Below are positions 18,285-63,963 of a stretch of 64,000 bases of DNA, in pieces. This DNA is from a virus: IMG/VR virus record IMGVR_UViG_3300031485_000046. One strand, written 5' to 3'. Below the pieces are notes generated by a model. It was not told the DNA's origin and did not search any database. It saw only the letters and a program-made list of their open reading frames with translations. The position numbers were made by a program, and so were the translations under genes. The first letter of the stretch is position 1; each line of letters opens with the position of its first letter.

Positions 18285-18323
18285 AATTACACAATAGAGC
18301 ATAATTGATAGCAATTGAATAGA

Positions 18324-18745: not shown

Positions 18746-18902
18746 CCCCTCTAAAATTGTGACAAATTTTTCTGGATATTAAAATGGGTAATCCATTATT
18801 TTCTAAAGCATATTCATTATTTATTCTACGTATCTTTCACACACCCCTCGTAAAATTGCTACTGATTTTTCCCAATACTAAAGTGGGTAATCCATTATTT
18901 TC
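18746..18902. repeat. two ~58-bp direct repeats sharing 'AAAATTG..TTTTTC..TAAA.TGGGTAATCCATTATTTTC'
   Basis: Copies at 18746..18803 and 18844..18902; inverted partial copy 'TAATGGATTA..ACCCA' near 18961; partial copy near 19110. Confidence 0.6.
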
Positions 18903-19426: not shown

Positions 19427-19645
19427 TCATTTCGCCCGCTCCTCCCAGAACCGTCTGCGTCGCTCCTCCCTGTGACGCTTGATATTCTCCCGCACCCTCT
19501 GCGTGCGGGGCGGGAACGTGTTCAGATGGGTCAGCACCGGCTCCACGCTGACAGCTCTGCCGAATTCCCTCTCCCATTCCTGGGCGTAGATTTCCTCGTA
19601 GGATAACATTTCGCGAAATCTGAGCCCCGTGCATCGTCCGCTCAT
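19427..19645 (-). CDS. small basic hypothetical protein inside a GC-rich islet
   Basis: 72 aa ORF starting 1 nt after kdsB stop; local GC visibly about 60% versus ~40% surroundings; no recognised motif. Confidence 0.3.
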   Translation of the reverse strand: MSGRCTGLRFREMLSYEEIYAQEWEREFGRAVSVEPVLTHLNTFPPRTQRVRENIKRHREERRRRFWEERAK

Positions 19646-20436
19646 TCCTTACCCTCCTTTTTTTCTATAATTTCATCATATTCATTTTCTTTACCAGAGT
19701 TTATTATACAACGAACAGCTTCCAAATCAGCAGGAGTATCTACACTAGGTCCAACTTTTTTTGCTCTTGTTATTTCTACTTTAATGGAAAAATCATGTTC
19801 TAATATTCTGAGCTGTTCCAGTGATTCTGCTGATGCCAAAGGTGTTTGTGGCATTTTGGCATAATAATGGATTAAGAAACGTCTAGTAAATCCATAAATT
19901 CCTATATGTCGGTAGATGGGATATACTTCTTCCGGATCTCTAATAAAAGGGATAGGAGACCTACTGAAATATAAAGCATCTCCATTTATTCTGAATGCCA
20001 CTTTTACTACCGATGGATCATTGATAGTAGCGGTATCTGTAATAAGGGCACATATCGTAGCAGATTCCGTAGCCCTATTTTCAGTTTTATAAAATAATGA
20101 TATTACTTCATCAATCATACAAGGATTAAGTAATGGTTCATCCCCTTGTATGTTTATCACTATATTATTATTAGAGAATTTTTTAGCTATTTCCACAACT
20201 CTACTAGTTCCGTTTGTATGATTTGGAGAAGTTAGCATAGCTTCTCCACCGAAATTATTTACAGCCTGCACGATTCTTTCATCGTCAGTAGCTACAATCA
20301 ACCGGTCAAGTAAAGTAGATCGTGAGGCTCGCTCGTACACTCTCTGGATCATTGTTTTTCCGCATATATCAGCTAGAGGTTTACCGGGGAGCCTTGTAGA
20401 ATTGTATCTAGCGGGGATAACTCCTAAAGTTATCAT
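19642..20436 (-). CDS. kdsB: 3-deoxy-manno-octulosonate cytidylyltransferase (CMP-Kdo synthetase)
   Basis: 264 aa; near-collinear with KdsB hallmark segments 'VIPARYNSTRLPGKPL', 'VATDDERI', 'QGDEPL', 'ALYFSRSPIP', 'HIGIYGF', 'EQLRILE', 'VDTPADLE' (compared from memory with E. coli KdsB). Confidence 0.85.
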   Translation of the reverse strand: MITLGVIPARYNSTRLPGKPLADICGKTMIQRVYERASRSTLLDRLIVATDDERIVQAVNNFGGEAMLTSPNHTNGTSRVVEIAKKFSNNNIVINIQGDEPLLNPCMIDEVISLFYKTENRATESATICALITDTATINDPSVVKVAFRINGDALYFSRSPIPFIRDPEEVYPIYRHIGIYGFTRRFLIHYYAKMPQTPLASAESLEQLRILEHDFSIKVEITRAKKVGPSVDTPADLEAVRCIINSGKENEYDEIIEKKEGKE

Positions 20437-27015: not shown

Positions 27016-27729
27016 ATGCGGGCGTGGAATACTCCGAGGATATGGGATAAAGGTGAATGTTGGATAATAGGAGGAGGACCTTCTATTATGCGACAGTTCC
27101 ATATTCCTGAGAATGTGATTGAGGCGGTTAGAGAAAAAAGATTACCGCTTTCTGCATATTCTCCGTACATGGAAAGCATTCATTCTAAGCATATCATCGG
27201 AGTAAACATGGCATTCCAGCTAGGAAATTGGGTTGATTTTTGTTTCTTCGGAGACGATGGTTGGTTTCGGGACCATAGAAAAGAATTAGCCCAATTTACT
27301 GGTGTAAGGGTATCTTGCGCACCTATGTTCAGTAAAAATACGTACCATGCAGATAATGGGGAACGTATTAAGTACCTAGCGCAGGATCCTAAAAAATCAC
27401 ACGGTATTAGTGAAGTACCTTACACCGTATGTTGGAATGCAAATAGCGGAGCGGCGGCAATCAGCCTAGCTTCTCATCTAGGTGCTAAAAAGATTGTTCT
27501 GTTAGGATTCGATATGCAGTTAGATCCTAATGGAAATAGTCATTGGCACAAAGAGTATCAAATGAATCCAGCAAAACGATCCGTGTTTCCTCGACACCTT
27601 AGAGGGTTTCCAATTATCGCCGCGGATGCTAAACGGATGGGCATCGAAATACTAAATGCCTCACCTGAAAGCGTAATAGACGATTTTCCTAAAATGACAG
27701 TGGAGGCGATATTGAATGGTTCTCCATAA
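27016..27729 (+). CDS. CstII/Maf-like (GT42/DUF115-type) ulosonic-acid transferase-like protein
   Basis: 237 aa; 'IIGGGPS' N-terminus and 'NSGAAAISLASHLGAKKIVLLGFD' core resemble CstII 'IIAGNGPS' and 'SGVYMCAVAIALGYKEIYLSGIDF' (recalled, not searched). Confidence 0.55.
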   Translation: MRAWNTPRIWDKGECWIIGGGPSIMRQFHIPENVIEAVREKRLPLSAYSPYMESIHSKHIIGVNMAFQLGNWVDFCFFGDDGWFRDHRKELAQFTGVRVSCAPMFSKNTYHADNGERIKYLAQDPKKSHGISEVPYTVCWNANSGAAAISLASHLGAKKIVLLGFDMQLDPNGNSHWHKEYQMNPAKRSVFPRHLRGFPIIAADAKRMGIEILNASPESVIDDFPKMTVEAILNGSP

Positions 27730-28330
27730 AAACAATATCGCGGTTATAGGACACGGTCCTAGCACTCGTGGAAGGAAACTAGGCAGTTTCATTAACCTTT
27801 GTGATACGGTCATTCGCATGATCGAATGTGATTGGCAGGATGCAGAAGATTACGGTAGTAAATATACGATCGGTGTATATGCTACGGGAGGATCTGACGA
27901 TTTTACAAAGGTGATTGAACGAAAGCCTTCTCTTTGCTGGTGGGTGTACGTTGCGGCTGGAACCCGTCCTTCTACGGCGATGAATGATGATACAGTAGAT
28001 GCTCCAGGTGTTGCGGGTCGTCCGATACGGTGGTTACGAAGAACCGTATGGGATTGGATCGGTGATAATAAAAAGTTCTCTAGAGGTACTGCTGCCGCGA
28101 TTGCGTCTATGGCGATCCTAAAACCCACTACAGTTCATTTAGTTGGGTTTGATGATGTTGCAAGGGGTGGAATGCTGAAAGGAGCATATCATCCTCCTGA
28201 GTTGCAACAGTACCTCAAAGAACAAGGAAAGACACTTGCCAGAAGTGAAACAGACCATGATTGGAATAATGAAGGCACCGTACTCCAACGTGCCGCAGAC
28301 TATTACGGAGTTGAGGTGAATTTTCTATGA
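27716..28330 (+). CDS. CstII/Maf-like transferase-like protein (paralog of 27016..27729)
   Basis: 204 aa; 'IAVIGHGPS' and 'SRGTAAAIASMAILKPTTVHLVGFD' mirror the upstream paralog. Confidence 0.55.
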   Translation: MVLHKNNIAVIGHGPSTRGRKLGSFINLCDTVIRMIECDWQDAEDYGSKYTIGVYATGGSDDFTKVIERKPSLCWWVYVAAGTRPSTAMNDDTVDAPGVAGRPIRWLRRTVWDWIGDNKKFSRGTAAAIASMAILKPTTVHLVGFDDVARGGMLKGAYHPPELQQYLKEQGKTLARSETDHDWNNEGTVLQRAADYYGVEVNFL

Positions 28331-29565
28331 AGACAATATCAGAGGAATATATTCGCCTTAATTCTGAGGTACACAACCAGCGGAGAGGGTACGGTAATTC
28401 AGCCAATCGGTTTGCTAAGGACATTGGGCTTGTTTTGCATCAGTTCCACACAATGTCTTTTCTGGATTATGGATGCGGAAAAGAATCTTTGATCCGTTGT
28501 ATTACGAAGGACTATCCGTATCTTGCCCAGAGAGCAAAGTATGGAGCATACGATCCAGCTATACCGCACCGGTCCGTTAAGCCGGAAGAGCAGTATGATA
28601 TGGTTATTTCTACAGATGTTCTTGAACACATTGAACCTGAATATCTGTCAGCCGTGCTGGAAGAGATCAAAGGATATGCTAAAAAAGGCGTCTATCTGAA
28701 TATCTGTATGCGACCGTCAGGAGATATTCTACCTGATGGTCGAAATGCCCATCTGATCGTTAAAGATGCCCCGTGGTGGCGTGAAACACTATCCAAAGCG
28801 TTTGAAGGATGGGCACTGGAAGAACGGGATGTACTTGACTCTTGGCGCAATTATACAGTAGTATTGACACCACCTAAGATTCAAAAGCCATTAAATATCG
28901 TCTGTTTCTACTGGAAAGGTACGAGTAATCGGTACCCAGGATGGGACGATGTGGATTTGGCAAAGATTTATGTCAACAATCTGTATAATGGCGTCCGTCG
29001 AAATTTGAACAAGGATTACAAGTTCATCTTGTTTTCCAATGATATTGAAGATGGGCTGGATCCACATGTAGAGATACGAAAGTTCCAGCCTATCTCGTGG
29101 ACAGGGTGCAATCCTAAGTTGTATGTGCATAGCCCAGATGCAGGATTAGAGGGAAGGGTGCTTACGTTTGATATGGATACTATCATCGTAGGAGACCTTA
29201 CTAATTTTGCAGAATACGATGGGGCTTTCACTACACGGATGGAACCTGACCGAAGAAGAGTAACAGCAGGAGACCTGCTAGGATTTGAAGCAGGTGAAAC
29301 GTACCAGTTATGGGAGAATTATAAGAATATCTCCAAGTATGCTGAAAAGTATCAAGGAGATGAAAGGGAGATCTACAAACTTCTTTGGAAACATTTGCTG
29401 TACTGGCAAGAAGAAATACCCGGGCAGTTGGTTTCTTATAAAGGTGATGTTCGTCCTAATCAGAACAGACTGCCTAGAAATGCAAGAATTGTAAGTGCGC
29501 ACGGTAAGCCTCGTCCGCATGAGATCAATGCGGAATGGATTAAATCGTGTTGGTGGGGAAAATGA
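28327..29565 (+). CDS. class I SAM-dependent methyltransferase fused to a DxD-containing transferase-like domain
   Basis: 412 aa; MTase motif I 'FLDYGCGKES', motif II 'DMVISTDVLEHIEPE'; C-terminal 'LTFDMDTIIVGD' DxD-like region. Confidence 0.55.
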   Translation: MKTISEEYIRLNSEVHNQRRGYGNSANRFAKDIGLVLHQFHTMSFLDYGCGKESLIRCITKDYPYLAQRAKYGAYDPAIPHRSVKPEEQYDMVISTDVLEHIEPEYLSAVLEEIKGYAKKGVYLNICMRPSGDILPDGRNAHLIVKDAPWWRETLSKAFEGWALEERDVLDSWRNYTVVLTPPKIQKPLNIVCFYWKGTSNRYPGWDDVDLAKIYVNNLYNGVRRNLNKDYKFILFSNDIEDGLDPHVEIRKFQPISWTGCNPKLYVHSPDAGLEGRVLTFDMDTIIVGDLTNFAEYDGAFTTRMEPDRRRVTAGDLLGFEAGETYQLWENYKNISKYAEKYQGDEREIYKLLWKHLLYWQEEIPGQLVSYKGDVRPNQNRLPRNARIVSAHGKPRPHEINAEWIKSCWWGK

Positions 29566-30278
29566 AACCGTATGTAGAATCTCCCATTATCATAACAGGT
29601 TGTCCACGAAGCGGAACTAGCATCATTTCTGGGATGTTAGAAATATGTGGTGCATTTGCAGGAACTATTCCACAGCCTACGAAACACGAAACAAGAGGCA
29701 TGGGAGAGAATCGGGTTATATATGAGGATGTTGTTAAACCGTATATTCAGAGTTTGCAAGCGGATCCATCTGGACAATGGCCATTGATGGATTCTGAAAA
29801 ACTGATGATTCCTATCGACTGGGAATCAATGATTTCAGACGCCTTGCACAAGGATGGCTATATGGGAGGCAAATGGCTATATAAGAGTAATACTGCGGCT
29901 CTTATGTGGAAAGTGTGGTCCTACGCCTATCCTAGCGCCAAATGGGTCCTAGTACGCAGGCGTACAGGTGACATAGTTTCTTCATGTTTGCAGACCTCGT
30001 ATATGAAAGCATTCAAAAATCCTGCATATCGTAAGGAAATTGGAGCGGAAACAGAATCAGAAGCATGGATCCATTGGGTACATAAGTATGAAGAAGCCTT
30101 TGTAGGGATGTTGACTGCGGGAGTTAATTGTAAGGTTGTCTGGCCGGAAAGATTCGTAAGAAACGATTATCAACAGTTGTATGAAGTAATTGAATGGGTA
30201 GGGCTTGAATGGAAATCTTCTGTAGCAGATTATCTAGACCCAAAGCTATGGAAGAATGAACGGAAGGAGGAGTGCTGA
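29562..30278 (+). CDS. sulfotransferase (PAPS-dependent type)
   Basis: ATG 29562 overlapping upstream stop (ATGA); 5'-PSB-like 'IIITGCPRSGTS' and 3'-PB-like 'VRRRTGDIVSS'. Confidence 0.6.
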   Translation: MKPYVESPIIITGCPRSGTSIISGMLEICGAFAGTIPQPTKHETRGMGENRVIYEDVVKPYIQSLQADPSGQWPLMDSEKLMIPIDWESMISDALHKDGYMGGKWLYKSNTAALMWKVWSYAYPSAKWVLVRRRTGDIVSSCLQTSYMKAFKNPAYRKEIGAETESEAWIHWVHKYEEAFVGMLTAGVNCKVVWPERFVRNDYQQLYEVIEWVGLEWKSSVADYLDPKLWKNERKEEC

Positions 30279-44682: not shown

Positions 44683-45363
44683 TTATTCTGCTACAAGAAT
44701 TTCTGCAAGAGATTCATCTAGTTTATATACCGCGTCCCATAACGCATTACAAAAATCATTGAATTCCTTCATAGCGGGAGGGTTCCCTCTAAGTTTGTAA
44801 ATATGTCGCCATTCTCGCATATTACCTGTAACAAGCATTTTTGTTGGAGTACATTCAGGCAATAGGTATTTAGCTGTATCATTCCCGTGCTTTTCTTGAA
44901 TCTTTTTTACAAGCTGGGTTCCTTTATACAACCAATCCAATACTTCTGCATCTTGTTCAATAGCTTCAGGAAGTATGAACCCAATAGGATTCTTAATGAT
45001 GGATTTAAGTGACCATCGTGTGCTTTGTACGGAAAAGGAAAGCAACCTATGCCGTGCAAATTGCTGAAGAAGAGCCCTAGAGATGTTAGAAACTTCCACG
45101 ACGAGGACAATGTGTTCTATCACACTTTCATGACCGTCTTTGATTCGTTTAAGGACATACTGTTTTGCTGTTTCCGTATCATACCCATCTTCTTTCCAGA
45201 ATACAATTAGGTCTTCATACTCATCAGTTATTGCAGGAAAAGCCTCTTGATTCACACAAATCTTAGATCCATGTAAAGCGTTTTGCAAAACAGTGGCATC
45301 TAACACTTTTACAGTCACAGGAAACTCTCTCATAAAATCATCACTCCTCTTACGTAAATACAT
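44683..45363 (-). CDS. thyX: FAD-dependent thymidylate synthase
   Basis: 226 aa; ThyX signature 'RHRLLSFSVQSTRW' (RHRxxSxxxxSxR). Confidence 0.85.
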   Translation of the reverse strand: MYLRKRSDDFMREFPVTVKVLDATVLQNALHGSKICVNQEAFPAITDEYEDLIVFWKEDGYDTETAKQYVLKRIKDGHESVIEHIVLVVEVSNISRALLQQFARHRLLSFSVQSTRWSLKSIIKNPIGFILPEAIEQDAEVLDWLYKGTQLVKKIQEKHGNDTAKYLLPECTPTKMLVTGNMREWRHIYKLRGNPPAMKEFNDFCNALWDAVYKLDESLAEILVAE

Positions 45364-45501
45364 ACGTATCCTTGGCGAATCCTTGCGTCAGGATCGCATT
45401 CTTTTAGAAAAGAGATATAGAATCATGTCTAAACTGTTTTTTATTGCAGGAAAGCGTATTATCCGTCAGAATGACGTGTGCCCATCCTGCGATGTTAAAT
45501 C

Positions 45502-46017
45502 CTAATAAGCACCCGACGTAAAACAGGAAGAAGCTATGCATATCAAATCTCCTATTGTTCCAGAGTTTTCTATAATATGGTCAAAACAGAATCCATCTAA
45601 TTCCGTTTCTGACGGATGATTCTTCTGTTCTTCTGTAAGACCATTATCATAGTTAGGACGTTCGATACGAACCGTAATCACTTTGTATCCATTCTTTTTT
45701 CCCCATTGTCGCATAATCTGGATCTCATTCAAATACCGGCAGTCTGTTATTGCTATTTGATTTGGATAACTGTTAGTCTCCAGCATGCGACAGACAAGAT
45801 TCACCCAAGTATCTCGATTATATTCCCTTACGGTAGAAGCAAGATCCTGTAGAAATTTACGACCTCGTTCATCTTTGTGCCCATTCCAACCCAACTTGAT
45901 AGCAAAATCCTTAAGCCGACCAGCAAAGGAATATTTATTGTACCCATCTAATCCTAACGCAAATGTATCTTTACCGGCTCTAGCTTTACCAGATATAAGA
46001 ATGATCGTTTTATTCAT
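45502..46017 (-). CDS. deoxynucleoside monophosphate kinase-like P-loop kinase
   Basis: 171 aa; P-loop 'ISGKARAGKDT'; size and context with thyX/dut. Confidence 0.55.
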   Translation of the reverse strand: MNKTIILISGKARAGKDTFALGLDGYNKYSFAGRLKDFAIKLGWNGHKDERGRKFLQDLASTVREYNRDTWVNLVCRMLETNSYPNQIAITDCRYLNEIQIMRQWGKKNGYKVITVRIERPNYDNGLTEEQKNHPSETELDGFCFDHIIENSGTIGDLICIASSCFTSGAY

Positions 46018-46252
46018 CCGAAGTATTACCTTTTTCTACAGAAGGTAAGGGTTCATTTGTTTGTGCTGGACTAAAACATTTAGCCAATGTGGGTAGTCCA
46101 TCTTCTTCTGCTACTTGCCGCATAATTTCCCGCAATTTCTGAGGCATGATTCTTGCCATGCTGATTACCTCACTTTCGTCAATAACATAGGAATATATAC
46201 TTTTACTTTTCTTCTTCCCCACCGTAGTGCCTCTTGCCGAGTATGGAAACAA
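46010..46252 (-). CDS. hypothetical small protein (likely starts at internal Met near 46159)
   Basis: Track ORF overlaps 3D-domain gene by 88 nt; internal start avoids the overlap. Confidence 0.3.
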   Translation of the reverse strand: MFPYSARGTTVGKKKSKSIYSYVIDESEVISMARIMPQKLREIMRQVAEEDGLPTLAKCFSPAQTNEPLPSVEKGNTSDE

Positions 46253-46581
46253 ATATCTATCTTGTTTCCAGTTATTCTTTTTCCTCTATCATCTACCCTG
46301 CGCCATCCAATGCCTTGCAAATGTACCCATGTACCAAATGGAATATATTTTGGTGCGGCAATTGTAACATCAGGTGTCGTTCGATTCCCGCTTGCTGTTA
46401 CTGTAGGATCTCCAGAATAACACATACCTTTAATTGCTTTAGGATCTAATGGAGCGTATCCTGTGGCAACCATTTCAATTGTCTTAGATAAAGGATACGA
46501 AAAAACGGGATGTACTGAAAGTAACATCCCGAAACCAAACATCATACTACCGAGAAGGAGGATCTTCTTTATCGACATCAT
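46165..46581 (-). CDS. secreted 3D-domain protein (MltA/RlpA-like fold)
   Basis: 138 aa; N-terminal signal-peptide-like hydrophobic segment; conserved Asp-containing 'ATGYAP', 'DPTVTASG', 'RVDDRG' pattern typical of 3D domains. Confidence 0.55.
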   Translation of the reverse strand: MMSIKKILLLGSMMFGFGMLLSVHPVFSYPLSKTIEMVATGYAPLDPKAIKGMCYSGDPTVTASGNRTTPDVTIAAPKYIPFGTWVHLQGIGWRRVDDRGKRITGNKIDICFHTRQEALRWGRRKVKVYIPMLLTKVR

Positions 46582-46708
46582 TCCAAAACTGGGTCATTTT
46601 CTTACCTACCCAAATGTACATTACGATAAGAGCAATAATGTACAATCCGATAAGTGTGCCGATAACCGTCAACAACCAAAATATCCACATAGGTAGATAT
46701 ATTGTCAT
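46547..46708 (-). CDS. small membrane protein
   Basis: Internal ATG at 46708 just after dut stop gives 53 aa with one transmembrane segment; track ORF 46547..46741. Confidence 0.35.
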   Translation of the reverse strand: MTIYLPMWIFWLLTVIGTLIGLYIIALIVMYIWVGKKMTQFWNDVDKEDPPSR

Positions 46709-46709
46709 A

Positions 46710-47180
46710 TCAGACACCTGTACTTCCAAAACCACCCGCACCTCTATCAGTATCCGTGAGGGAATTTACATACTCATTAAGCGCATGAACTACTGGAACC
46801 ACAACAGCTTGGGCGATTCTGTCACCATGCTCAATAATAATGTCTGGATCAGTTATCCACCCCGCATGTTCAATCAATACCTTTATTTCACCGCGGTAAT
46901 CAGAATCAATAGTGCCTGGGGCGTTTGGAATCCTTAGTTTTGTAGTAAATGACAGTCCTGATCTTGGGCGTATTTGCATTTCACAGCCTTCAGGTATTTC
47001 TACTGCAAGTCCTGTGGGAATAGCTTTAATCTGCCCAGGTTTTACCGTTATATTCCCGTCAGGGTACAGGAAAGGATCTGCTAGACATGCTTTTAGATCC
47101 ATCCCGCTTGCTCCTACAGACATATACTTAGGTGAAGTAGCTGCAGGGTCAAGCAGTTTCCACTTCAGGATAACAGTCAT
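46710..47180 (-). CDS. dut: dUTP diphosphatase
   Basis: 156 aa; dUTPase motifs 'GASGMDL', 'GTIDSDYRGEI', 'RIAQ'. Confidence 0.9.
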   Translation of the reverse strand: MTVILKWKLLDPAATSPKYMSVGASGMDLKACLADPFLYPDGNITVKPGQIKAIPTGLAVEIPEGCEMQIRPRSGLSFTTKLRIPNAPGTIDSDYRGEIKVLIEHAGWITDPDIIIEHGDRIAQAVVVPVVHALNEYVNSLTDTDRGAGGFGSTGV

Positions 47181-47191: not shown

Positions 47192-47842
47192 TTATCTAAT
47201 CTGGAATGTTTTTGTAAATCCGTTTCTACTTTTGCACCATCCTACTAGCCAATAACAAAATGGTGTATCACTCAATGCGATCAATATTTTAACAACCCAC
47301 TGGCTCATTATCATGGAAAATAAAACAGGCATGGGCATAATTCCATAAAATGCAATAACGATAAAGATTACCGTATCGAAAAACTGGCTAGATATGGTAC
47401 CTACGTTATTTCTAAGCCACAAATGTTTTCCATGTGTTAAATCCTTTAGCTTATGAAATACCCATACATCATTCAGCTGGCTGACAAGATAAGCAGTCAA
47501 TGAAGCTCCAGTAATCCTACCAACTCTTCCAAAGAGTTCTGTAAAGAATTCCTGCCTCTCATAGAAAGGAGCGGCGGGAAGCATAACAGCGATAAACCCT
47601 AGTGACATAGCAAGCAGACTACAAAAGAATCCTGCCCATACAACCCTTGTAACTACTTTCTTACCCCATACCTCTCCAATCACATCAGTCATAAGAAAAG
47701 TAATTGGGTATGCGATAACACCTGCTGGTAGAATGAAATCCCCAAACATAAACAGTTTTGTTGCCAATACGTTTGCAGTTACCAACGATGTCACAAATAC
47801 TGCAACCAGTGTGATGAATGTTCTTGGAATCTTGAGTTCCAT
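47192..47842 (-). CDS. yhhQ: queuosine-precursor transporter, YhhQ/DUF165 family
   Basis: 216 aa polytopic membrane protein; segments 'MTDVIGEVWG', 'ASLTAYLVSQLNDVWVFHKLKD', 'SQFFDTVIFIVIAF' align with E. coli YhhQ (from memory). Confidence 0.7.
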   Translation of the reverse strand: MELKIPRTFITLVAVFVTSLVTANVLATKLFMFGDFILPAGVIAYPITFLMTDVIGEVWGKKVVTRVVWAGFFCSLLAMSLGFIAVMLPAAPFYERQEFFTELFGRVGRITGASLTAYLVSQLNDVWVFHKLKDLTHGKHLWLRNNVGTISSQFFDTVIFIVIAFYGIMPMPVLFSMIMSQWVVKILIALSDTPFCYWLVGWCKSRNGFTKTFQIR

Positions 47843-56262: not shown

Positions 56263-58080
56263 TTATTTGAAATGGTAATCTCCCTTCTCATTCCAAGAAC
56301 AATCAACAGGACACACTTCTGCTTCTACTTCCAAGGGTACATTTATCCAGCTCCAGTGCTTAGGTAAATCTTCACAAGTAATCCTATGAACAGTAGACGC
56401 AACCATATCTAATTCGTCAGGATGCACATCCAACACCATTGCGTCATGTATCTGTCCGATCAATCTGGATTTCCAGTTCTGTTCTCTGGATATCTTGTCA
56501 ACCTGAATGAACGACCATAACAGACAATGAAATGCACTTCCCTGAATAGGAATATTTATGCATTCATTCCTACGCATGATACCAGAACATCTGAATCCTG
56601 TGTACATGCTCACATACCCGTTTTTTTGATACCCTTCCCACCACTTGTCTTTCCAACGATTATACACTTTGAATCGCCTATTCCAAAAATCATCTTCAAT
56701 TTTCTTGATATGGTCCGTAAACTTATCGAAGGAATCTAGCTTGTTTGCAATCAAGTGGTCGGAAATATGACCTCCGTCATGCTCAATGCCTTCACCTTTC
56801 TTCCATTTGCCTTTAGATAATCCGCACCATTTACAAGCAATATTTTCGGCGCAGTTTACATAATAGTCACCATAGAACTGCGGAAATACAAATCCGTTCT
56901 TTGCCGCTTGCCTCATCATTTTATGCGATGGTATACTCTTGTCTAACTTATCAAGTACAAATATCTGACAAGCCATATCACCGTGCATATCCGATGAAGG
57001 ATCTTCAATGTACTTTCTCATAACAGGGTCATGATGGTAACACTCGCTGATTCTTACTTCCACTCCTGAATAGTCTATTTCAAGTAGCTGGTGACCTGGC
57101 TTAGGAAATATCGCTTTGCGAGTAATCTCCATAGCCTCTTTATCTCGCTTGGGAATATTTTGGAAGTTTATCCGCTCCGATGAATTATGTACGCATATTT
57201 GGTTCACGATAAAATTATGATATTTTTCCACTTCAATATCGTACACATCTACCGGCTCATCAAGGTACTCTATTGTGTGGTCTGTATGATTAGACAATAC
57301 CTTATTAGAAAGACGTGTATCTGATAACGCCCTCGCTTGCACGTATGTTCCATCTATTAGACGGATTTTGTGCTCAGGTGTCACATCTAAGTATCCTTTC
57401 CCACCTCCACCGTTTATAGAGTAATGGATTCGCACAACTTTCTTATGTCCTGTTTTGCCAGCCCATATAACTTTTTGAATAGAAGGGCGGAGTTTATCGT
57501 CAAAACAATACACATAATCACCCTTCTTTACATTTTCAATAGGGGTCCCTTCTGGTTGTGCTTCAAAATCTTTCATTACCAATACTTTAGATCCTTTAGC
57601 TACACAAGAGCGAAATGTCTTTACTGTATGCAAATTAAAGAAAGGATGCAAGTATCCGCCTACTTGTTCTCTTATGAAAGCATCCAGATACGTATCTCGC
57701 ACCTTTTTCAATTTGCGCATTTCCAAAATCCACTTTATCTCAGGAATATCAATCTGGGAAAGTGCTTCATCGTCTGTTGCACCCTTGCCAGATGGTGTCA
57801 ACTTTGCAGGGGTGATTTTCCTAACATTGTACAAAAGGTGTGCTAACTGCCAATTAGAATCAGGGTTAGCCTTAGCACCATACACCTTCGTCCAATGCAT
57901 ATAGAATTTAGTATCCCTGAGTTTTCTATCCAATCGTGCTATTTTTTTGTCAAGGTACTCTTTTTTCTTTAAGCAGTAATCAACATCAATCCGCATTCCT
58001 TCTTGTTCTGCCCTCGCAAAAGCAAGGATGCCATCTTGCAATAGCTGATATGCTTCAGGAAGATTAGGTGTCAGTTGCAT
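56263..58080 (-). CDS. polA: family A DNA polymerase, polymerase-domain subunit (intein-containing)
   Basis: Motif A 'LLEIDYSGVEVR', motif B 'RQAAKNGFVFPQFYG', motif C 'QIHDAMVLD'; SD AAGGAGGG 8 nt before ATG 58080 (track start 58107). Confidence 0.85.
   Translation of the reverse strand: MQLTPNLPEAYQLLQDGILAFARAEQEGMRIDVDYCLKKKEYLDKKIARLDRKLRDTKFYMHWTKVYGAKANPDSNWQLAHLLYNVRKITPAKLTPSGKGATDDEALSQIDIPEIKWILEMRKLKKVRDTYLDAFIREQVGGYLHPFFNLHTVKTFRSCVAKGSKVLVMKDFEAQPEGTPIENVKKGDYVYCFDDKLRPSIQKVIWAGKTGHKKVVRIHYSINGGGGKGYLDVTPEHKIRLIDGTYVQARALSDTRLSNKVLSNHTDHTIEYLDEPVDVYDIEVEKYHNFIVNQICVHNSSERINFQNIPKRDKEAMEITRKAIFPKPGHQLLEIDYSGVEVRISECYHHDPVMRKYIEDPSSDMHGDMACQIFVLDKLDKSIPSHKMMRQAAKNGFVFPQFYGDYYVNCAENIACKWCGLSKGKWKKGEGIEHDGGHISDHLIANKLDSFDKFTDHIKKIEDDFWNRRFKVYNRWKDKWWEGYQKNGYVSMYTGFRCSGIMRRNECINIPIQGSAFHCLLWSFIQVDKISREQNWKSRLIGQIHDAMVLDVHPDELDMVASTVHRITCEDLPKHWSWINVPLEVEAEVCPVDCSWNEKGDYHFK
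57184..57606 (-). other. mini-intein (141 aa, Hint domain only) in the 'TxRxSS' motif of the polymerase
   Basis: Residues C168..N308 of track ORF: block A 'CVAKGSKVLV', block B 'TPEH', block F 'VYDIEVEKYHNFIVN', block G 'CVHN' followed by Ser; flanks join to 'TFRS|SSERINFQNIP' like Pol I 'TGRLSSTDPNLQNIP'. Confidence 0.8.
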
Positions 58081-59342
58081 CCTATGTACCCTCCTTGCTG
58101 AATCCATCGCATTTGTTTAGATGCTAACCGGTAAGTGAACAAACTATCCATACCACAGTATATCAATAGTTTATTCCAAATATCAGATCCTACAGGAACA
58201 TCAAGCAATTTGTTCATGGAATTGCTATCTTTATCATCCGCCCCTTTAAGATATGGAGCGACCTCATCATCATACCCTGCTACACCAAAATTGATATAGG
58301 TTTGTATCTTCAATCCTGTGATGTCTGGTCTGTTATCAAGAATGTGTGTAGCCAACATAGTATCCCATATCCAGTTTTTTACTTCATACCCCAGAATATT
58401 TTGTGTCCATGTGTGTTCAAACTTCAGATTTTGGGCAATCTTTCCTATCTTGTCTGATTGCAAAATTTCCTTAAGCAGTCTATTTCCTTTCTTACTTTTA
58501 GGCATCCCAAAAACTATTGCATCTTCAGGATTACTACACATGGACATGCAGATGATTTTGTGCTTGCTTGTATCATGCGGTTTAAGGCCCGTCGTTTCAT
58601 AATCAATAGCAATAGAAAACGGAAACTTTCTAGAAAGAAACTCTTCAAAAATTCCTACTAGCTCACTTTCTGATTTTACTATCTTGATAGCCGTCATTTC
58701 ATCTGGATATGTTTGCATAGACATGTCCACTGTATTTAATGCCCTGTCAAGGTCCTGTTTCCATACTGTTCGATATTCCTGTGCATCTTGTTTTTCTACA
58801 AACTCTGGATGAAATATCGGGCAGATCCACGTATTGTATTTCCTATCTGGAATAGTAAATCCTCTCCATTTATTCATTCCACCTAAATTCTTTGTCCAGA
58901 TAGAACCTATCACGGAGTTTAATGCTAGTTCACCTACAAGAATTATCACTTTAGGTTTATACTGCTCAATAGTAGATAGCACTCTTCGTCGGCAACATTG
59001 AACTTCTTTTGTCCACGGATTGGTGGTTTCCTTGGACCCTGAAGCATAGCAAGACAAAGCAAAGAGATTCAGACAGTCTTTGAACAAATCAACGCCTCTA
59101 CGTTCAAATTCTCGCCTAAGCGTTGTTCCAAATCTGTCTTGCCACGGTTTGCCTACTCGATCATCTCTACTGCTTGGCATATCACCAATGACCATTATTT
59201 TCTTTTCAAATTCCCCGAATGGTGCCATTCTAGGAGACGAAATATCTTTATACAACCCACAAGAAGCGCAAGAGAAAGCCTTATTACCACTAGGCCTAGT
59301 TTTAGATTTAGTTTCTTCTACTGAAAAGAATCCACTAGCCAT
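58071..59342 (-). CDS. DNA polymerase N-terminal subunit: UDG-like (family 4-type) domain + 3'-5' exonuclease domain
   Basis: 423 aa; 'CASCGL' and 'FHPEF' UDG-family-4-like elements with degenerate motif A ('GDMPS'); Exo I 'IAIDYETTGL', Exo II 'NLKFEH', Exo III 'YCGMDSLFTY'. Confidence 0.75.
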   Translation of the reverse strand: MASGFFSVEETKSKTRPSGNKAFSCASCGLYKDISSPRMAPFGEFEKKIMVIGDMPSSRDDRVGKPWQDRFGTTLRREFERRGVDLFKDCLNLFALSCYASGSKETTNPWTKEVQCCRRRVLSTIEQYKPKVIILVGELALNSVIGSIWTKNLGGMNKWRGFTIPDRKYNTWICPIFHPEFVEKQDAQEYRTVWKQDLDRALNTVDMSMQTYPDEMTAIKIVKSESELVGIFEEFLSRKFPFSIAIDYETTGLKPHDTSKHKIICMSMCSNPEDAIVFGMPKSKKGNRLLKEILQSDKIGKIAQNLKFEHTWTQNILGYEVKNWIWDTMLATHILDNRPDITGLKIQTYINFGVAGYDDEVAPYLKGADDKDSNSMNKLLDVPVGSDIWNKLLIYCGMDSLFTYRLASKQMRWIQQGGYIGCN

Positions 59343-59346
59343 CTTA

Positions 59347-60354
59347 CTAACCTTTCATTTCTAGAACGCCAACATACTCCCAATTATCTCCTATGAACTT
59401 GATAGCGTTTTCACCAAGAATGCATTTTTTAAGCATTTTACTTACATCCTTAAGAAGTTCAGGACGAATAGTAAATTTCTTTTCCTCACCTTTATATTTC
59501 AGATTCATCTCTTCTTCAAACCAGCCAACTTCAGACTGACCACGAATAATCATGCGTTTGGGCTTGATAGTTATTGTTACAGCATTACTTTCTGCTTCAC
59601 TGGAAAAGATAGACGCACGGTCTAACACCTCTTCAATAGCTCTAGGCAATTCAAAATCCGCACCCTGCACATCCATATATTTCGACACATCTGGAAATGT
59701 ATCTCCGAAGAAAGTTCGGCAAGAATACTCCGTACCTTTCTCAGTCTTGAAATGAATCCACCCGTGCCCTTCTGCAATATGTGTGGGTACACATCCATTC
59801 AATCTCTTTATAGTGCTTGCTGGCAAAAGAAACGTAGACACAGGCATCTTTTCAGTTAACTTGTACACCATTATTCTATAACTGTCAGACGCTTCAACGG
59901 AACCTTTTTCTGTCACATTTACACAAGTAATGATCGGACGGCTCATATCATTGGAACAAGCAAAGGAAACAAATTTAAGCGCCTTCATAAGACCTTCAGG
60001 TACTTTCTTCCATTTGCTTTTCTCACCAATCGCTTCTAGAGGCATCCGTATCTTTTCTTGAAGAGTAAGTCCTGCTTTAGCTTTACCTGCTTTCATGCGA
60101 ACCTCAGAACCATTTGCCTCTATTTCTACATCATTGGTTTTCATTTTGCACAGCACCTGATAAAACTCGTCAGCCTTGATAGCACCCTCAAGCCCATCTA
60201 ATCCTTCCACAGGATGGGACACACTTATTTCGTCATTGAATGTCATTACTTTCCCATCCTTAAAAGCAAAGCAGGTAGACTGTTCAATGTGCTCCTTAGA
60301 CGCAAGACCGGGCTTCACTATTTCAAGAGCTTCCAGAATATCTTCCCTATTCAT
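59347..60354 (-). CDS. DNA sliding clamp (DnaN/beta-like)
   Basis: 335 aa; 'SRPIITCVNVTEKGSVEASDSYRIMVYKL' resembles DnaN domain-2 'RYYLNGM..VATDGHRLAV'; adjacent to polymerase. Confidence 0.6.
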   Translation of the reverse strand: MNREDILEALEIVKPGLASKEHIEQSTCFAFKDGKVMTFNDEISVSHPVEGLDGLEGAIKADEFYQVLCKMKTNDVEIEANGSEVRMKAGKAKAGLTLQEKIRMPLEAIGEKSKWKKVPEGLMKALKFVSFACSNDMSRPIITCVNVTEKGSVEASDSYRIMVYKLTEKMPVSTFLLPASTIKRLNGCVPTHIAEGHGWIHFKTEKGTEYSCRTFFGDTFPDVSKYMDVQGADFELPRAIEEVLDRASIFSSEAESNAVTITIKPKRMIIRGQSEVGWFEEEMNLKYKGEEKKFTIRPELLKDVSKMLKKCILGENAIKFIGDNWEYVGVLEMKG

Positions 60355-60941
60355 ATTATATCCACCCCTTTTGCCCTATTTCGTTTTACCTGCCGATGTA
60401 TAAGAAATGCAAACTGTTTATACATGTTAATAAAATTATACCCAACATGCTTTAGTTTGCCTTTCTGTATTTCCCACGGAGTGCATATCCTATCTGCTTT
60501 CTCCCATCGCATGTCAAGTACATATTTATCAAAAGGAATAAAATCGTATCGTTCCGCCCAATAAGAAGACATAAGCCCATTATTCAGAACAAGTACACAA
60601 AAATGGATGTCGTATTTACTGCATTTATTATACAATTCCTCACAACTATGCATTGTCTTGGGCAGATGCAGTCTAGGGTAATTACGAAGCTGGGAGTAAG
60701 ACTGCCTTATCCAGAATTTTACTGGAATTGTTGTCTGTTCATTTTTTAGTCCTACATCCACAATTAAACCAATCCCTGAGAACATGTTTTGCGTCTTACC
60801 GGGTAATTCACACCGCAACGGACTCATAGGCATATTAACTAATTTTTCAACATACCTGAGAACCATGCCGTTGTACTTATTTATATCTTCCTGCGGATTT
60901 CTTCCCTTAGTGTCTGATTCTACCTTGAACATCGGTTCCAT
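60351..60941 (-). CDS. hypothetical protein (between clamp and DpdA-like gene)
   Basis: 196 aa; no QueD/QueE/FolE signature recognised. Confidence 0.55.
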   Translation of the reverse strand: MEPMFKVESDTKGRNPQEDINKYNGMVLRYVEKLVNMPMSPLRCELPGKTQNMFSGIGLIVDVGLKNEQTTIPVKFWIRQSYSQLRNYPRLHLPKTMHSCEELYNKCSKYDIHFCVLVLNNGLMSSYWAERYDFIPFDKYVLDMRWEKADRICTPWEIQKGKLKHVGYNFINMYKQFAFLIHRQVKRNRAKGVDII

Positions 60942-60956: not shown

Positions 60957-61928
60957 TTATATAGTGAATAATCCTTTGCTTACTTGGAATTGAACTCCTT
61001 TGCGATATTCATTCACCCATTGCTCTAATCCTAGAATGTATCGGATGTTAATTTCACAACGAACATCAAAGGATTGAATCTCATCATACGTGTACCCATC
61101 ATCTTCAATCTGTTTTAATTTCCGAGGTGTAAGTACACCCATTCCTTTACTAGACCGTTGCTTCGATACACAAAACACCATCGGTTGCTTTGAATAATCA
61201 GGATTCTTGAATCCACCGATAGGGTACATGATAGAACCCCACGCGGCAACTATTCTCCAAGTAGCGGCATCAGCACTAGTAAAAGGTAGCGTTTTCAGCA
61301 CGGGCAACATCCATACTGCAAATCCGTGTGTTTTAACACGGATTCTATTTATATGGATGTAAGAAAATACTGACCGCATCCAAGATAGCCTAGATTGGAC
61401 ACTCATATCGTTTGCAGGTGACACTCCGATATAGTCAGTAAGTTCTACCATTTTGTGCAACCATTCCCAATCTTCTCCTTGATGGAAGACATGAATAGGA
61501 GTGATCCCTGCATCTTTCATCCTAAGAAGATTTTCGTATCCTTTCGCGGCCGCTGTATTGATAATTTTCTTATTCTCCGCAGTCTTCACTCGATTGAGAT
61601 GTGTAGAAGTACCAGGAGAACCGGGGATCACATCGAGGTTGACTACCCTCAACTTTTTATTATCATCCGCCGCTATTTGGATTGCCTCTTTAGCATAACT
61701 AATGTAGGCGTCAATGGGAATAGAATGACCTTTAGCCCATGCTGAAAACGCACCTGAATCAAGAATGATGTTTCCATTTAATGTAGGAACTTGTCTGCAC
61801 CATTCTTTAAGCTGTTTTGGATAGAGATAAGAAACCAGTCTGTTCGTAATCCGCCTGTTGAGTTCCTTACCGCGTTCTTCCTTAGGATTAAAAACAGGAC
61901 CGGCAAAATACAAACGGACTGGCTTCAT
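60957..61928 (-). CDS. dpdA: DpdA-like tRNA-guanine-transglycosylase-family DNA 7-deazaguanine transglycosylase
   Basis: 323 aa; 'ILDSGAFSAW' resembles TGT 'DSGGFQ' catalytic motif; adjacent to queF and queC. Confidence 0.65.
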   Translation of the reverse strand: MKPVRLYFAGPVFNPKEERGKELNRRITNRLVSYLYPKQLKEWCRQVPTLNGNIILDSGAFSAWAKGHSIPIDAYISYAKEAIQIAADDNKKLRVVNLDVIPGSPGTSTHLNRVKTAENKKIINTAAAKGYENLLRMKDAGITPIHVFHQGEDWEWLHKMVELTDYIGVSPANDMSVQSRLSWMRSVFSYIHINRIRVKTHGFAVWMLPVLKTLPFTSADAATWRIVAAWGSIMYPIGGFKNPDYSKQPMVFCVSKQRSSKGMGVLTPRKLKQIEDDGYTYDEIQSFDVRCEINIRYILGLEQWVNEYRKGVQFQVSKGLFTI

Positions 61929-61930
61929 TT

Positions 61931-62374
61931 TCAGTTACCTGTTCCGTCGTACTCGGCAATCACCGAAATATCAGTACCACCTCTGCGATTGAAATTAGCC
62001 TCTATTCGCATGTGGTACGGTTTGCAAGCGTTCGACAGATCGTCCAGTATTTTGTTTGTAACAGACTCCATAAACGCTCCGTGCTGACGATATGCTCCCA
62101 TGTATATCTTGAGTGCTTTCGTTTCCAAACAAAAATCCTTTGGAAAGTATCGAATCGTGATAGTGCCAAAATCAGGATTTCCTGTACGCGGACACAGACT
62201 GGAAAATTCCGTGAATACGAACTCCGTGGCGTATTGCCTGTCTTTGCACGGATTATCAAATACTTCAAGAAGAGCTGGATCTGGATTATTGTACCTGTCG
62301 TACGGTACGACTGTTCCGAGGTTTTTCAGATGGTCTACATTCACTTTTCTATCCATTGTTTGCACCCTCCTCAT
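61931..62374 (-). CDS. queF: NADPH-dependent 7-cyano-7-deazaguanine reductase (unimodular QueF)
   Basis: ~145 aa; catalytic-Cys region 'FSSLCPRTGNPDFGTITIRY' and QueF motif-like 'ETKALKIY'. Confidence 0.8.
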   Translation of the reverse strand: MRRVQTMDRKVNVDHLKNLGTVVPYDRYNNPDPALLEVFDNPCKDRQYATEFVFTEFSSLCPRTGNPDFGTITIRYFPKDFCLETKALKIYMGAYRQHGAFMESVTNKILDDLSNACKPYHMRIEANFNRRGGTDISVIAEYDGTGN

Positions 62375-63044
62375 AGAATACTGGGTCGATCAGATTGTTT
62401 TCTGCAAAGGCCTCAAGGCGTTCATAACAACTTCCACATTTTCCGCAAGGATTCGGTTGGTTCTTGTAACAAGTTCTTGTAAGGTGATATGGTGCGTTAT
62501 TTGCAATACCATACTGCACTATCTGACTTTTAGACATGTGAAGGAACGGTGCAAGTATATTCACATTTCTATCCGTACCAAGATAAATCGCTGTATCCAT
62601 TGCTTTATGAAATTCTGGGCGACAATCAGGGTAAATAGCATGATCGCCTCTATGAATTCCTATAGCAATATTCTCTATACCTTTTGACCACGCCATACCG
62701 GCTAGGATCGACAGGAACACTAGATTACGAGCAGGTACCACCGTCTGACTCATATTCGATGATTCATAGTGTCCTTCCGGTATTTCTCCACCGCTTAGAA
62801 GCAGACTAGATTCCATTCCAGTAAATGCTCCGGACAGGTCTACAACTTCGTAGGTCAATTCGCAAGGAACGGCAGACACATAATATTTCAATACTGCGTC
62901 TGCCGCTCTTCGTTCGTACACATTGTGTTTGCTACCGTACTGGAAATTTACACAATGGATTTTCTTGAATTCCTTGCGAATAAGCCAAGCAAGAACTGTT
63001 GCAGAATCCAGTCCTCCTGAGAAAGAAAGGACTGCGGAACGCAT
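62349..63044 (-). CDS. queC: 7-cyano-7-deazaguanine synthase
   Basis: Start at ATG 63044 (track ORF 62349..63188 carries an implausible Arg/Lys-rich extension); PP-loop 'SFSGGLDS'; zinc site 'CYKNQPNPCGKCGSC'. Confidence 0.85.
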   Translation of the reverse strand: MRSAVLSFSGGLDSATVLAWLIRKEFKKIHCVNFQYGSKHNVYERRAADAVLKYYVSAVPCELTYEVVDLSGAFTGMESSLLLSGGEIPEGHYESSNMSQTVVPARNLVFLSILAGMAWSKGIENIAIGIHRGDHAIYPDCRPEFHKAMDTAIYLGTDRNVNILAPFLHMSKSQIVQYGIANNAPYHLTRTCYKNQPNPCGKCGSCYERLEAFAENNLIDPVFYEEGANNG

Positions 63045-63045: not shown

Positions 63046-63963
63046 TTACTTCTTCTTTCCAGCCTTCTTGCCAGCTTTCGCTTCCTTAGCCGGAGCGGTC
63101 TTTGCAGGCGCTTCCTTCTTTGCAGAAGCTTTCTTTTCCGCCATTTCTGCCTTCGCCTCCTTCTTTTTAGAAGATTTACTACCACCATCGTGCTTCACGA
63201 TTTCCTTAGTGATCTTACTGCCTTTCTCACACTTGATATCCGTGAACTTCACGATGTTGCCATCTTCCTTGTCAATGTAGATAAGCACAGGGAAGCGGCA
63301 ATATTTAGGATTAGTCCCATCAGAAAGAATTGTAGAAAGAGCGGCGATGGTTGCGTCGGGGAACTGCTTTGCCGCAAGTTCGATCAGATCCTTTTTGCTG
63401 TACCGACCCTCATTGATAAGGTCGATAAAAAATTCGATCCTTTTGGCAGTCTTATTGCCACCAAATATCTCATCCTTCGTTTTCGTGGGCTTATCAGATT
63501 TTGCAGGCTTTTCTGCCTTCGGAGCCTTAGCAGGCTTTTCTTCCTTGGCTTTACTCTTGCCCTTCTTAGGAATAGGAAGTACCTCTATTTCGTCTTCCTC
63601 TTCTTCCTCTACATCGTCACCGTCTTCGACATCTTCGTCCTCATCGCTTTCGTCCCCATCTTCCCCTTCCTCGTTGACCCCTTCATCGTCTTCGTCTTCA
63701 TCGTCAGCTTCTTCGTCCCCTTCGACTTCTTCCTCATCCGCATCCTCCTCGTCGGCATCCTCTTCCTCTTCATCAGCATACTTAGCCTGAATCTGTGCAA
63801 GAATATCCATCGTTTCCTCGGAAAGTCCATCCTCTTCGCTTACAGCTTCAGAAGCCTCAAGCAGTTCAGCTTCCAGTTCGTCAGTACCGAGCTTTACATC
63901 AATGGGAGGCTCGATAATAGTATTAATCTCCTTAGCCGCCTTAACCAGTTCACTTTTCTTCAT
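63046..63963 (-). CDS. hypothetical protein with ~70-residue poly-acidic tract and Lys/Ala-rich histone-H1-like C-terminus
   Basis: 305 aa; D/E run about 63560..63780; C-terminal 'KKEAKAEMAEKKASAKKEAPAKTAPAKEAKAGKKAGKKK'. Confidence 0.6.
   Translation of the reverse strand: MKKSELVKAAKEINTIIEPPIDVKLGTDELEAELLEASEAVSEEDGLSEETMDILAQIQAKYADEEEEDADEEDADEEEVEGDEEADDEDEDDEGVNEEGEDGDESDEDEDVEDGDDVEEEEEDEIEVLPIPKKGKSKAKEEKPAKAPKAEKPAKSDKPTKTKDEIFGGNKTAKRIEFFIDLINEGRYSKKDLIELAAKQFPDATIAALSTILSDGTNPKYCRFPVLIYIDKEDGNIVKFTDIKCEKGSKITKEIVKHDGGSKSSKKKEAKAEMAEKKASAKKEAPAKTAPAKEAKAGKKAGKKK

Follow-up and report, generated by a model that had tools for sequence, protein, structure and literature searches.

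The 64,000-nucleotide stretch of viral DNA held as IMG/VR virus record IMGVR_UViG_3300031485_000046 (the window) raises the question of whether a phage that encodes only the last steps of 7-deazaguanine synthesis is equipped to modify its own DNA. Phage 7-deazaguanine DNA modification is an established anti-restriction strategy. The window carries three adjacent genes, queC, queF and a dpdA-like gene, together with a gene for a YhhQ-family transporter 13 kb from these enzyme genes. A first-pass annotation had read the set as a module placing dPreQ1 in the genome, and all four of its open reading frames (ORFs) were recovered on the minus strand at the positions it gave. The analysis reported here indicates that the genes probably form a trimmed phage 7-deazaguanine DNA-modification system, in which a precursor would be converted to preQ1 and inserted by DpdA into phage DNA.

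The argument depends first on the transglycosylase. The dpdA gene (60957..61928, minus strand) encodes 323 amino acids and is interpreted as a DpdA1-like DNA-guanine transglycosylase, predicted to exchange G in double-stranded DNA for preQ1. The ORF had no Pfam or NCBIfam match at E values up to 0.01, PF01702 (tRNA-guanine transglycosylase, TGT) included, and it matched PHROG 887 at 1e-41. Searches by tblastn retrieved 172 GenBank phage records, all below 32% identity, including Streptococcus phage Dp-1, Iggy (annotated as 'DpdA') and Seuratvirus, whose homologue is annotated as a '7-deazaguanosine inserting enzyme'. Among 5.8 billion proteins, 755 homologues were found at E ≤ 1e-5, nearly all of them unannotated metagenomic proteins with no Pfam domain. 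Direct homology comparison was confined to DpdA1 proteins. The protein is 35% identical to DpdA1 of Cellulophaga phage phiSM (107 bits, 3.4e-29) and 28% identical to DpdA of Dp-1 (102 bits, 7.6e-27), both of them dPreQ1 phages; the corresponding values are 1e-20 for the dPreQ0 phage Iggy and 1.7e-19 for Seuratvirus. Measurements of DNA modification have established dPreQ0 in Iggy and dPreQ1 in Dp-1 and phiSM (PMC6884629, PMC10516641, PMC10484667). The DSGAFS, LDxIP, FHxGE and SxD motifs align with those of the Dp-1, phiSM, Iggy and Seuratvirus enzymes. In addition, an insertion after LDxIPG is common to the window protein, phiSM and Dp-1 and is absent from the dPreQ0-type enzymes of Iggy and Seuratvirus.

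Residue conservation and the predicted fold are consistent with an enzyme of this kind. In an alignment of 53 DpdA sequences, the invariant residues are D57-S-G-A, D99, H146, H149, E152, H201-G-F, S218 and D220, with F61 close to invariant (at least 90%); no Cys is invariant across the 53 sequences and there is no Zn site. In the bacterial DpdA of S. Montevideo, Asp95 has been identified as the acid/base residue acting with Phe99, Asp130 and His181 as the residues for base recognition, and Asp256 as the nucleophile, and the mutants D95A and D256A are inactive (PMC10164549). D57-x3-F61, D99, H149 and D220 would reproduce this active-site pattern. The AlphaFold2 model (pLDDT 92.7, pTM 0.90) is predicted to adopt the (beta/alpha)8 barrel fold of the TGT superfamily. 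Its closest structure is bacterial DpdA (7UI4), with bacterial DpdA and TGT ranking above Cap10, and the Foldseek search of the model against the PDB was non-specific. At the level of sequence, phmmer and profile hmmsearch comparisons with PDB entries gave chance matches only, which included neither a solved TGT nor 7UI4. Identification as a tRNA TGT was rejected on three grounds, namely that the protein has no match to a TGT family model, no CxCxxC...H Zn site and no sequence-level PDB match. A bacterial-type DpdA was likewise rejected, since the protein lacks the Zn site, the genome lacks DpdB, and profile searches show no similarity. Overall, the data support a DpdA1-like transglycosylase that is predicted to act on DNA rather than as a tRNA TGT, in agreement with the first-pass annotation.

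The two biosynthetic genes directly upstream would supply the substrate of this enzyme. The queC gene (62349..63044, minus strand; 231 amino acids) encodes a predicted preQ0 synthase, which would convert 7-carboxy-7-deazaguanine (CDG) to preQ0. The protein matches Pfam QueC at 1.1e-55 and TIGR00364 with 170.1 bits (cutoff 150.3), and aligns over its full length to the solved QueC 2PG3 at 2e-27. It carries the SGGLDS motif of the PP-loop, VVPARN, IYPDC, PF(x)4K and the four cysteines of the Zn site. Canonical QueC proteins (PF06508 cluster 1) have been described by the motifs SGGxDS, C(x)8CxxCxxC, YxQxHxxE, VPxRN and YPDC, and Y35, R99, Y131 and Y189 are essential in the E. coli enzyme (PMC13329287). 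All four of these experimentally essential Y/R/Y/Y residues are kept in the window protein. The deviations are YGSKHNVYE, with Q replaced by S and the Glu shifted by one, and a C(x)7C spacing. Neofunctionalisation tied to pathway loss was considered and rejected because the same motif variant occurs in full-pathway relatives; YGSKHxxxE and C(x)7C are best regarded as a lineage trait and not as a new function. The longest mechanical ORF for queC reaches 63188, with the true start at the ATG at 63044, as in the L001 gene call and as the end coordinate of the first-pass annotation implies; the additional 47 residues, basic in character, come from reading the lysine-rich tail of the preceding gene in another frame.

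The queF gene (61931..62356, minus strand, with an alternative upstream ATG at 62374) encodes 141 amino acids. The product scores 143 bits against TIGR03139 (cutoff 86.9) and 4.5e-29 against Pfam QueF, can be aligned along 113 residues to 4F8B, the QueF of B. subtilis (1.1e-23), and is a single T-fold of 141–147 amino acids, within the limit of 200 that applies to the unimodular type. The family-defining features of QueF are Cys55, Asp62, Glu97 and an NADPH motif that includes Glu78 in B. subtilis numbering (PMC5372742). Equivalents of all four are present in SLCPRTGNPDF, ETKALKIY and FME, which supports the assignment as a unimodular, NADPH-dependent preQ0 reductase predicted by the first reading. 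His96 is replaced by Met, a change common to most of the clade. Met at this position was rejected as a sign of inactivity, since the position is not family-defining and the validated QueF of phiSM has Gln there. The QueF proteins of phiSM and VH7D have been shown to reduce free preQ0 by complementation of an E. coli delta-queF strain (PMC10516641).

The transporter gene, yhhQ (47192..47842, minus strand; 216 amino acids), lies apart from the enzyme genes, with genes for dUTPase, dNMP kinase and ThyX as neighbours. Its product is a multi-pass membrane protein that matches Pfam Vut_1 at 1.7e-53 and TIGR00697 with 164 bits (cutoff 50.95). It thus stands above the cutoff of the COG1738 queuosine-precursor transporter equivalog model, in line with the family named at the outset, and is predicted to carry preQ0 or preQ1. 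The scores of QueC, QueF and YhhQ all lie well outside the range of chance. In Seuratvirus and in further viral contigs, yhhQ and dpdA are neighbours. The adjoining nucleotide-metabolism block (44683-47180, minus strand) encodes ThyX, the dNMP kinase, a 3D-domain protein and the dUTPase.

The absence of the early pathway genes can be judged over the whole genome. A Logan contig (SRR34859213) matches the window with 100% identity and links position 1 to position 64000 via a gap of 611 bp, which falls within a DnaB-like gene and its neighbouring spacer. The whole genome is 64,611 bp (about 64.6 kb), circular or permuted, and the window holds all of it except these 611 bp. Pfam scans of window ORFs of at least 45 amino acids, together with precomputed calls on the bridging contig, found no GTP cyclohydrolase I, no PTPS/QueD and no radical-SAM QueE. 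Nothing was found by tblastn in the 64,611-bp genome with FolE, QueD, QueE and QueT of Dp-1, with FolE, QueD, QueE and DpdM of phiSM, or with FolE, QueD and QueE of Iggy and Seuratvirus as queries. No ORF contained the Pfam family of DpdM (DUF3109, CxxxCxxCC), DpdN (PF00551 formyltransferase) or DpdL (a QueD paralogue), the genome has no ParB/DpdB or DpdC homologue, and no CD-NTase, QatA, QatB or QatD partner appeared in any Pfam sweep. Since FolE, QueD and QueE are absent genome-wide, the phage cannot make CDG from GTP and therefore depends on host CDG or preQ0 or on import. The first-pass annotation had noted this absence for the window and had expected such reliance; the absence extends to the complete genome, and the reliance follows from it.

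A census of 78 loci around DpdA relatives, taken from genome and viral collections and typed by local tblastn, indicates how this gene set arose. At DpdA identities of 44–54%, the prevalent layout is QueD-QueE-(homologue of a 305-amino-acid ORF)-QueC-FolE-(DpdM)-QueF-DpdA-clamp, a gene set that amounts to a full dPreQ1 or mdPreQ1 pathway, placed beside the clamp gene just as in the window. The window lineage (eight loci with DpdA identity of at least 71%) has the order 305-amino-acid ORF-QueC-QueF-DpdA-196-amino-acid ORF-clamp, and a sister branch (L003-L005) has only QueF-DpdA, QueC having been lost. The adjacency of QueF and DpdA is kept across the whole clade, even where there is no QueC. 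Because the relatives at 44–54% identity mostly carry the complete cluster, the gene set of the window derives by reduction from a full pathway, the early genes having been lost in the lineage. The same QueF-DpdA pair is present in full-pathway relatives and would therefore normally work within a full dPreQ1 pathway. Against relatives that are 96–99% identical, the ratio of nonsynonymous to synonymous substitution rates (dN/dS) is 0.065–0.095 for DpdA, 0.077 for QueF and 0.12–0.20 for QueC. These values indicate purifying selection, not decay, in the genes that were kept. YhhQ is common in viral contigs (158 relatives). Among the best 80 of these 158 matches, none of the nine long full-pathway contigs of the DpdA clade is represented, and YhhQ identity drops from 77% to at most 52% outside the window lineage. 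It is suggestive, not conclusive, that YhhQ accompanies pathway reduction, as the full-pathway contigs may be incomplete.

Several of these relatives show variations of their own. A DpdM homologue lies directly upstream of QueF in L036, L039, L041, L042, L045 and L056, and follows FolE, or QueC in L045 and L056, where FolE or QueC is present; mdPreQ1 is the predicted product in the relatives that bear it. A ParB-like gene follows DpdA in L055 and L060, as in phiSM. In L022 (IMGVR_UViG_3300028241_000475), QueC and DpdA are 98–99% identical to those of the window and QueF is only 74% identical, which suggests a mosaic replacement or a frameshift of queF. In L003 (GCA_900198705.1, FZPS01000013.1), the phage region, related at 71%, is embedded in a contig of 2.4 Mb; it has QueF and DpdA and no QueC, and may represent a prophage-like state or an assembly chimera. 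No integrase family was found in the Pfam scans of the window (top families, 25 of 28). The matches from genome collections are phage contigs mis-binned into metagenome-assembled genomes of unrelated phyla, and no host can be assigned from them.

The module is also placed where it could be expressed together with DNA replication. The genome is that of an uncultured phage of siphovirus type, with genes for a portal, a lambda-like tail tube, a tape measure and a tail tip, and with its replication blocks on the minus strand. It has no tRNA genes. A megablast search of the 6-kb region against GenBank phages found nothing, and hence there is no close cultured relative. The junctions of the module are tight. 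The stop of the 305-amino-acid ORF sits 1 nt before the start of queC, the end of queC and the start of queF share 8 nt, and 2 nt separate queF from dpdA. Downstream of dpdA, AAGGAGG is followed by the ATG of the 196-amino-acid ORF, the stop of which overlaps the start of the sliding-clamp gene, so this ORF is translationally coupled to both dpdA and the clamp gene. The clamp gene (DNA pol III beta-like; 59347..60354, minus strand), identified by a faint DNA_pol3_beta_2 match on the L006 orthologue and a match to the Seuratvirus clamp at 2.6e-10, is followed by a gene for a fusion of a UDG-family domain and a 3'-5' exonuclease (DNA_pol_A_exo1) and then by an intein-bearing family-A polymerase, PolA. 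As the tight junctions run on into the clamp, exonuclease and polymerase genes, the module is part of a replication operon, a setting that favours DNA over tRNA as the substrate of DpdA. The order dpdA-clamp-polymerase is the same in Iggy and Seuratvirus.

Two ORFs flank the module within this operon. The 196-amino-acid ORF (60351..60941, minus strand), between dpdA and the clamp gene, has no match in Pfam, NCBIfam or PHROGs, relaxed thresholds included. It has only 11 homologues, all of at least 59% identity, and its AlphaFold2 model (pLDDT 41.5) shows no confident fold. Loci with DpdA identity of at least 71%, which belong to the reduced-pathway lineage, are the only ones to carry it, and a dN/dS of 0.04–0.06 points to strong purifying selection. 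It is at most a candidate member of the module. On the other side, directly upstream of queC, a 305-amino-acid acidic and lysine-rich protein (63046..63963, minus strand) combines a long run of Asp/Glu with tails rich in Lys/Ala and a conserved core of about 80 residues (approximately residues 165–245), which is kept at 34–67% identity in 12 relatives. In divergent, full-pathway relatives its homologues lie between queE and queC. The sole family hint is a sub-threshold match to the Cac1_C winged helix (E 0.002, 18.6 bits, cutoff 24.3), and the protein is possibly DNA-binding. Kinship with the K/A-rich gp55 of phiSM was rejected, the similarity being of low complexity only. These conserved flanking ORFs and the evolutionary reduction of the cluster are additions to what the first-pass annotation had described.

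Taken together, these genes suggest the following route. The host queuosine pathway would supply CDG, or YhhQ would import free preQ0 or preQ1, or both. Phage QueC, the catalytic residues of which are intact, would convert CDG to preQ0, and phage QueF would then use NADPH to reduce free preQ0 to preQ1, as its conserved residues and the published complementation by phage QueF proteins suggest. After replication, DpdA would exchange a fraction of the G in double-stranded phage DNA for preQ1 by the double displacement of the TGT/DpdA superfamily, with D57 as acid/base and D220 as nucleophile. The arrangement of the genes is observed, and their coupling within the clamp, exonuclease and polymerase operon implies that modification would be co-expressed with replication. 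By analogy with other phages, in which such protection has been established, dPreQ1 would shield the genome from host restriction enzymes. The actual substrate, the modification density, the motif and the source of the precursor are inferred in this scheme. Dp-1 and phiSM DNA contain dPreQ1 (PMC6884629, PMC10516641), the VH7D DpdA2, co-encoded with QueF, inserts preQ1 (PMC10516641), and a host-supplied precursor has precedent in the DpdA-only phages 7-11 and MED16 (PMC6884629, PMC8306585). The dPreQ1 expected in the first-pass annotation agrees with results published for phage QueF and QueF-associated DpdA enzymes (PMC10516641).

Several points weigh against this route. That the DNA is modified, with which base and how densely, is predicted from the sequence. 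The mapping of catalytic residues onto bacterial DpdA comes from motif spacing and the phage DpdA1 alignment, not from residue-level superposition. The closest characterised homologue, DpdA1 of phiSM, showed no activity when produced on its own in E. coli, and the sole DpdA directly shown to insert preQ1 is a DpdA2 (PMC10516641). Host production of CDG or preQ0 is an assumption of the scheme. QueC would be dispensable if preQ0 or preQ1 were imported or host-made, and the sister lineage has lost it; for this reason the actual precursor is uncertain. Finally, the lineage-specific ORF between dpdA and the clamp gene could alter the product.

Other readings of the same genes differ mainly in the product and in the target. 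It is rather unlikely that dPreQ0 or a mixture of preQ0 and preQ1 dominates (or that a derived dADG does), with QueF having a minor part or serving host tRNA queuosine. Such a product would fit the DpdA enzymes characterised before 2023, which all inserted preQ0, the VH7D DpdA2, which inserts preQ0, less efficiently, when preQ1 is not available, the Queuovirinae DpdA1 enzymes, which share the operon backbone and make dPreQ0 or dG+, and the replacement of His96 by Met in QueF. It accords poorly with the tight coupling of queF to dpdA under strong purifying selection (dN/dS 0.077) and with the adjacency of the two genes throughout the clade, the QueC-less branch included. Moreover, the two nearest characterised DpdA1 enzymes come from dPreQ1 phages and share the insertion absent in Iggy and Seuratvirus, and the QueF-encoding phages that have been measured hold dPreQ1 or its derivative, not dPreQ0 (PMC6884629, PMC10516641). 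A further possibility, which is unlikely, is that dPreQ1 is an intermediate tailored by an unrecognised enzyme, either the 196-amino-acid ORF product or a 412-amino-acid protein with an S-adenosylmethionine (SAM)-methyltransferase domain (28327-29565). Other phages do tailor dPreQ1, to mdPreQ1 and fdPreQ1, some clade relatives have DpdM between FolE and QueF, and the 196-amino-acid ORF is conserved, coupled to dpdA, under purifying selection, and arose in the lineage that lost the early pathway. However, the genome has no homologue of DpdM (DUF3109) or DpdN (formyltransferase), the 196-amino-acid ORF is without a detectable family, cofactor motif or confident fold, and the methyltransferase belongs to a separate insertion in the structural block, together with a sulfotransferase, which points to another target. 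A related variant builds on the apparent gain of both YhhQ and the 196-amino-acid ORF in the lineage that shed FolE, QueD and QueE. In it, salvaged environmental or microbiome preQ0 or preQ1, and not de novo synthesis by the host, would fuel the modification, or the 196-amino-acid ORF product or the Met96 QueF would yield an undescribed derivative, or both; this is similarly improbable.

Two alternatives move the target away from DNA. PHROG and many GenBank records label the DpdA homologues 'queuine tRNA-ribosyltransferase', and phages with preQ0 genes and no DpdA have been proposed to boost host queuosine. The corresponding reading, that QueC, QueF and YhhQ raise preQ1 for host tRNA queuosine while the TGT-like protein modifies tRNA, is very unlikely here. 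The protein matches neither the Pfam and NCBIfam models of tRNA TGT nor, at sequence level, any solved TGT, it lacks both the Zn site and the tRNA-binding extension, and its structure is nearest to a DNA enzyme. Deletion of a homologous DpdA abolishes DNA modification in CAjan (PMC6884629). The conserved position of dpdA directly upstream of clamp and polymerase genes and the lack of tRNA genes in the genome also speak against an RNA target. Hardly credible at all is a pair of the Cap9/Cap10 type, in which QueC and the TGT-like protein would conjugate a deazaguanine to protein as in type IV CBASS (cyclic-oligonucleotide-based antiphage signalling system) or Qat, perhaps as a counter-defence. 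Canonical QueC is matched far better and over the whole length (2e-27, above the TIGR00364 equivalog cutoff), bacterial DpdA and TGT outrank Cap10, CD-NTase, QatA, QatB and QatD are missing from the Pfam sweeps, and QueF and YhhQ would have no role there. The sister lineage, moreover, has QueF and DpdA with no QueC. Modification of phage DNA with preQ1 thus remains the preferred reading of the locus.

Comparison with characterised systems places this DNA-modification module among known types. The Dp-1 cluster (QueF-QueC-QueD-QueE-FolE-QueT-DpdA) is alike in its unimodular QueF (41% identity), QueC (35%) and DpdA1 (28%) and in encoding a precursor transporter; dPreQ1 makes up about 1.7% of G in Dp-1 DNA. 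Unlike the window, Dp-1 has the complete pathway from GTP to preQ0, its transporter is QueT rather than YhhQ, and its cluster lies at the genome end and not in a clamp-polymerase operon. Phage phiSM, with dPreQ1 and mdPreQ1, has the closest characterised DpdA, a QueF that lacks His96 yet is a proven reductase, and a cluster adjoining a DNA pol III beta gene. FolE, QueD, QueE and DpdM, as well as the ParB-like protein next to its DpdA, set phiSM apart; the window has none of them. The Queuovirinae (Seuratvirus/CAjan/9g and Iggyvirus) are siphovirus-type phages of about 60 kb with que genes, DpdA, a small ORF, clamp and polymerase, and Seuratvirus also encodes YhhQ. Their DpdA identity is only 24–26%, they have a full FolE/QueD/QueE/QueC set without QueF, and their product is dPreQ0 or dG+, not dPreQ1. 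The DpdA-only Salmonella phage 7-11 and Pantoea phage MED16 share the use of a host-made or imported 7-deazaguanine precursor, but have no biosynthetic enzyme and contain dADG, whereas the window encodes the last two enzymes and a transporter. The bacterial Dpd system (DpdA/DpdB/DpdC; 7UI4) is more remote. Its DpdA is a protein of 413 amino acids that has particular insertions and a structural Zn site and depends on DpdB, a ParB-like ATPase. The window protein has 323 amino acids and no conserved cluster of Cys residues, it is accompanied by neither DpdB nor DpdC, and similarity is undetectable even by profile. Cap9 and Cap10 of type IV CBASS also pair a QueC-family with a TGT-family enzyme, but within a bacterial defence operon and with a CD-NTase protein, deazaguanylated at its N-terminus, as target, and there is no CD-NTase here. 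In its gene content the module lies between the 'full pathway' and 'DpdA only' groups of the literature, with parts and mechanism of known kinds. It would work as the dPreQ1 systems of Dp-1 and phiSM do, on a replication-operon backbone like that of the Queuovirinae. It differs in that FolE, QueD and QueE are missing while QueC, QueF and the transporter are kept, along with a lineage-specific ORFan.

Other features of the genome lie outside the module. In the replication operon, PolA (56263-58107, minus strand) is interrupted by a mini-intein of 142 amino acids (57181-57606; Cys...His-Asn|Ser, with Pfam Intein_splicing between the DNA_pol_A parts), and the 71%-related phage L003 has a PolA of 463 amino acids without an intein. 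The UDG-exonuclease fusion (58071-59342, minus strand; 423 amino acids) is a gene of its own that overlaps the polymerase gene, and is kept in relatives. A four-gene insertion on the plus strand (27016-30278), between capsid-like and head-tail connector genes, encodes a weak MptE/Maf-like ORF, an ORF of no known function, the SAM-methyltransferase-domain protein already mentioned and the sulfotransferase. A cytidylyltransferase (CTP_transf_3, 1.5e-56) is encoded apart from it at 19642-20436 (minus strand), and these genes may together make up a set for glycan or virion-protein modification. An AT-rich (GC about 0.35), sparsely coding stretch at 14400-19400 has several tandem repeat arrays, with units of 120 bp (2.2 copies, 15503-15768), 7 bp (7.3 copies, 16497-16547), 67 bp (3 copies, 16771-16972) and 22 bp (2.7 copies, 18503-18562), and may be an origin or a regulatory region. 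A sigma-70 region-2 protein is encoded at 5767-6360 (minus strand).

This almost complete genome is an example of a minimal toolkit, reduced to the final two enzymes of biosynthesis, the transporter and the insertase. Modification, and hence restriction evasion, is expected to depend on the early queuosine pathway of the host or on external preQ0 or preQ1. The series found among relatives, from the full pathway through QueC-FolE-QueF and QueC-QueF to QueF only, is a natural experiment on the outsourcing of precursor supply by phages. In practice, restriction enzymes may fail to cut the DNA of these phages, and its nanopore signals at G may be aberrant. The DpdA clade, with at least 755 metagenomic proteins, is missed by Pfam and NCBIfam models, and modification systems of this kind are therefore under-counted in viromes.

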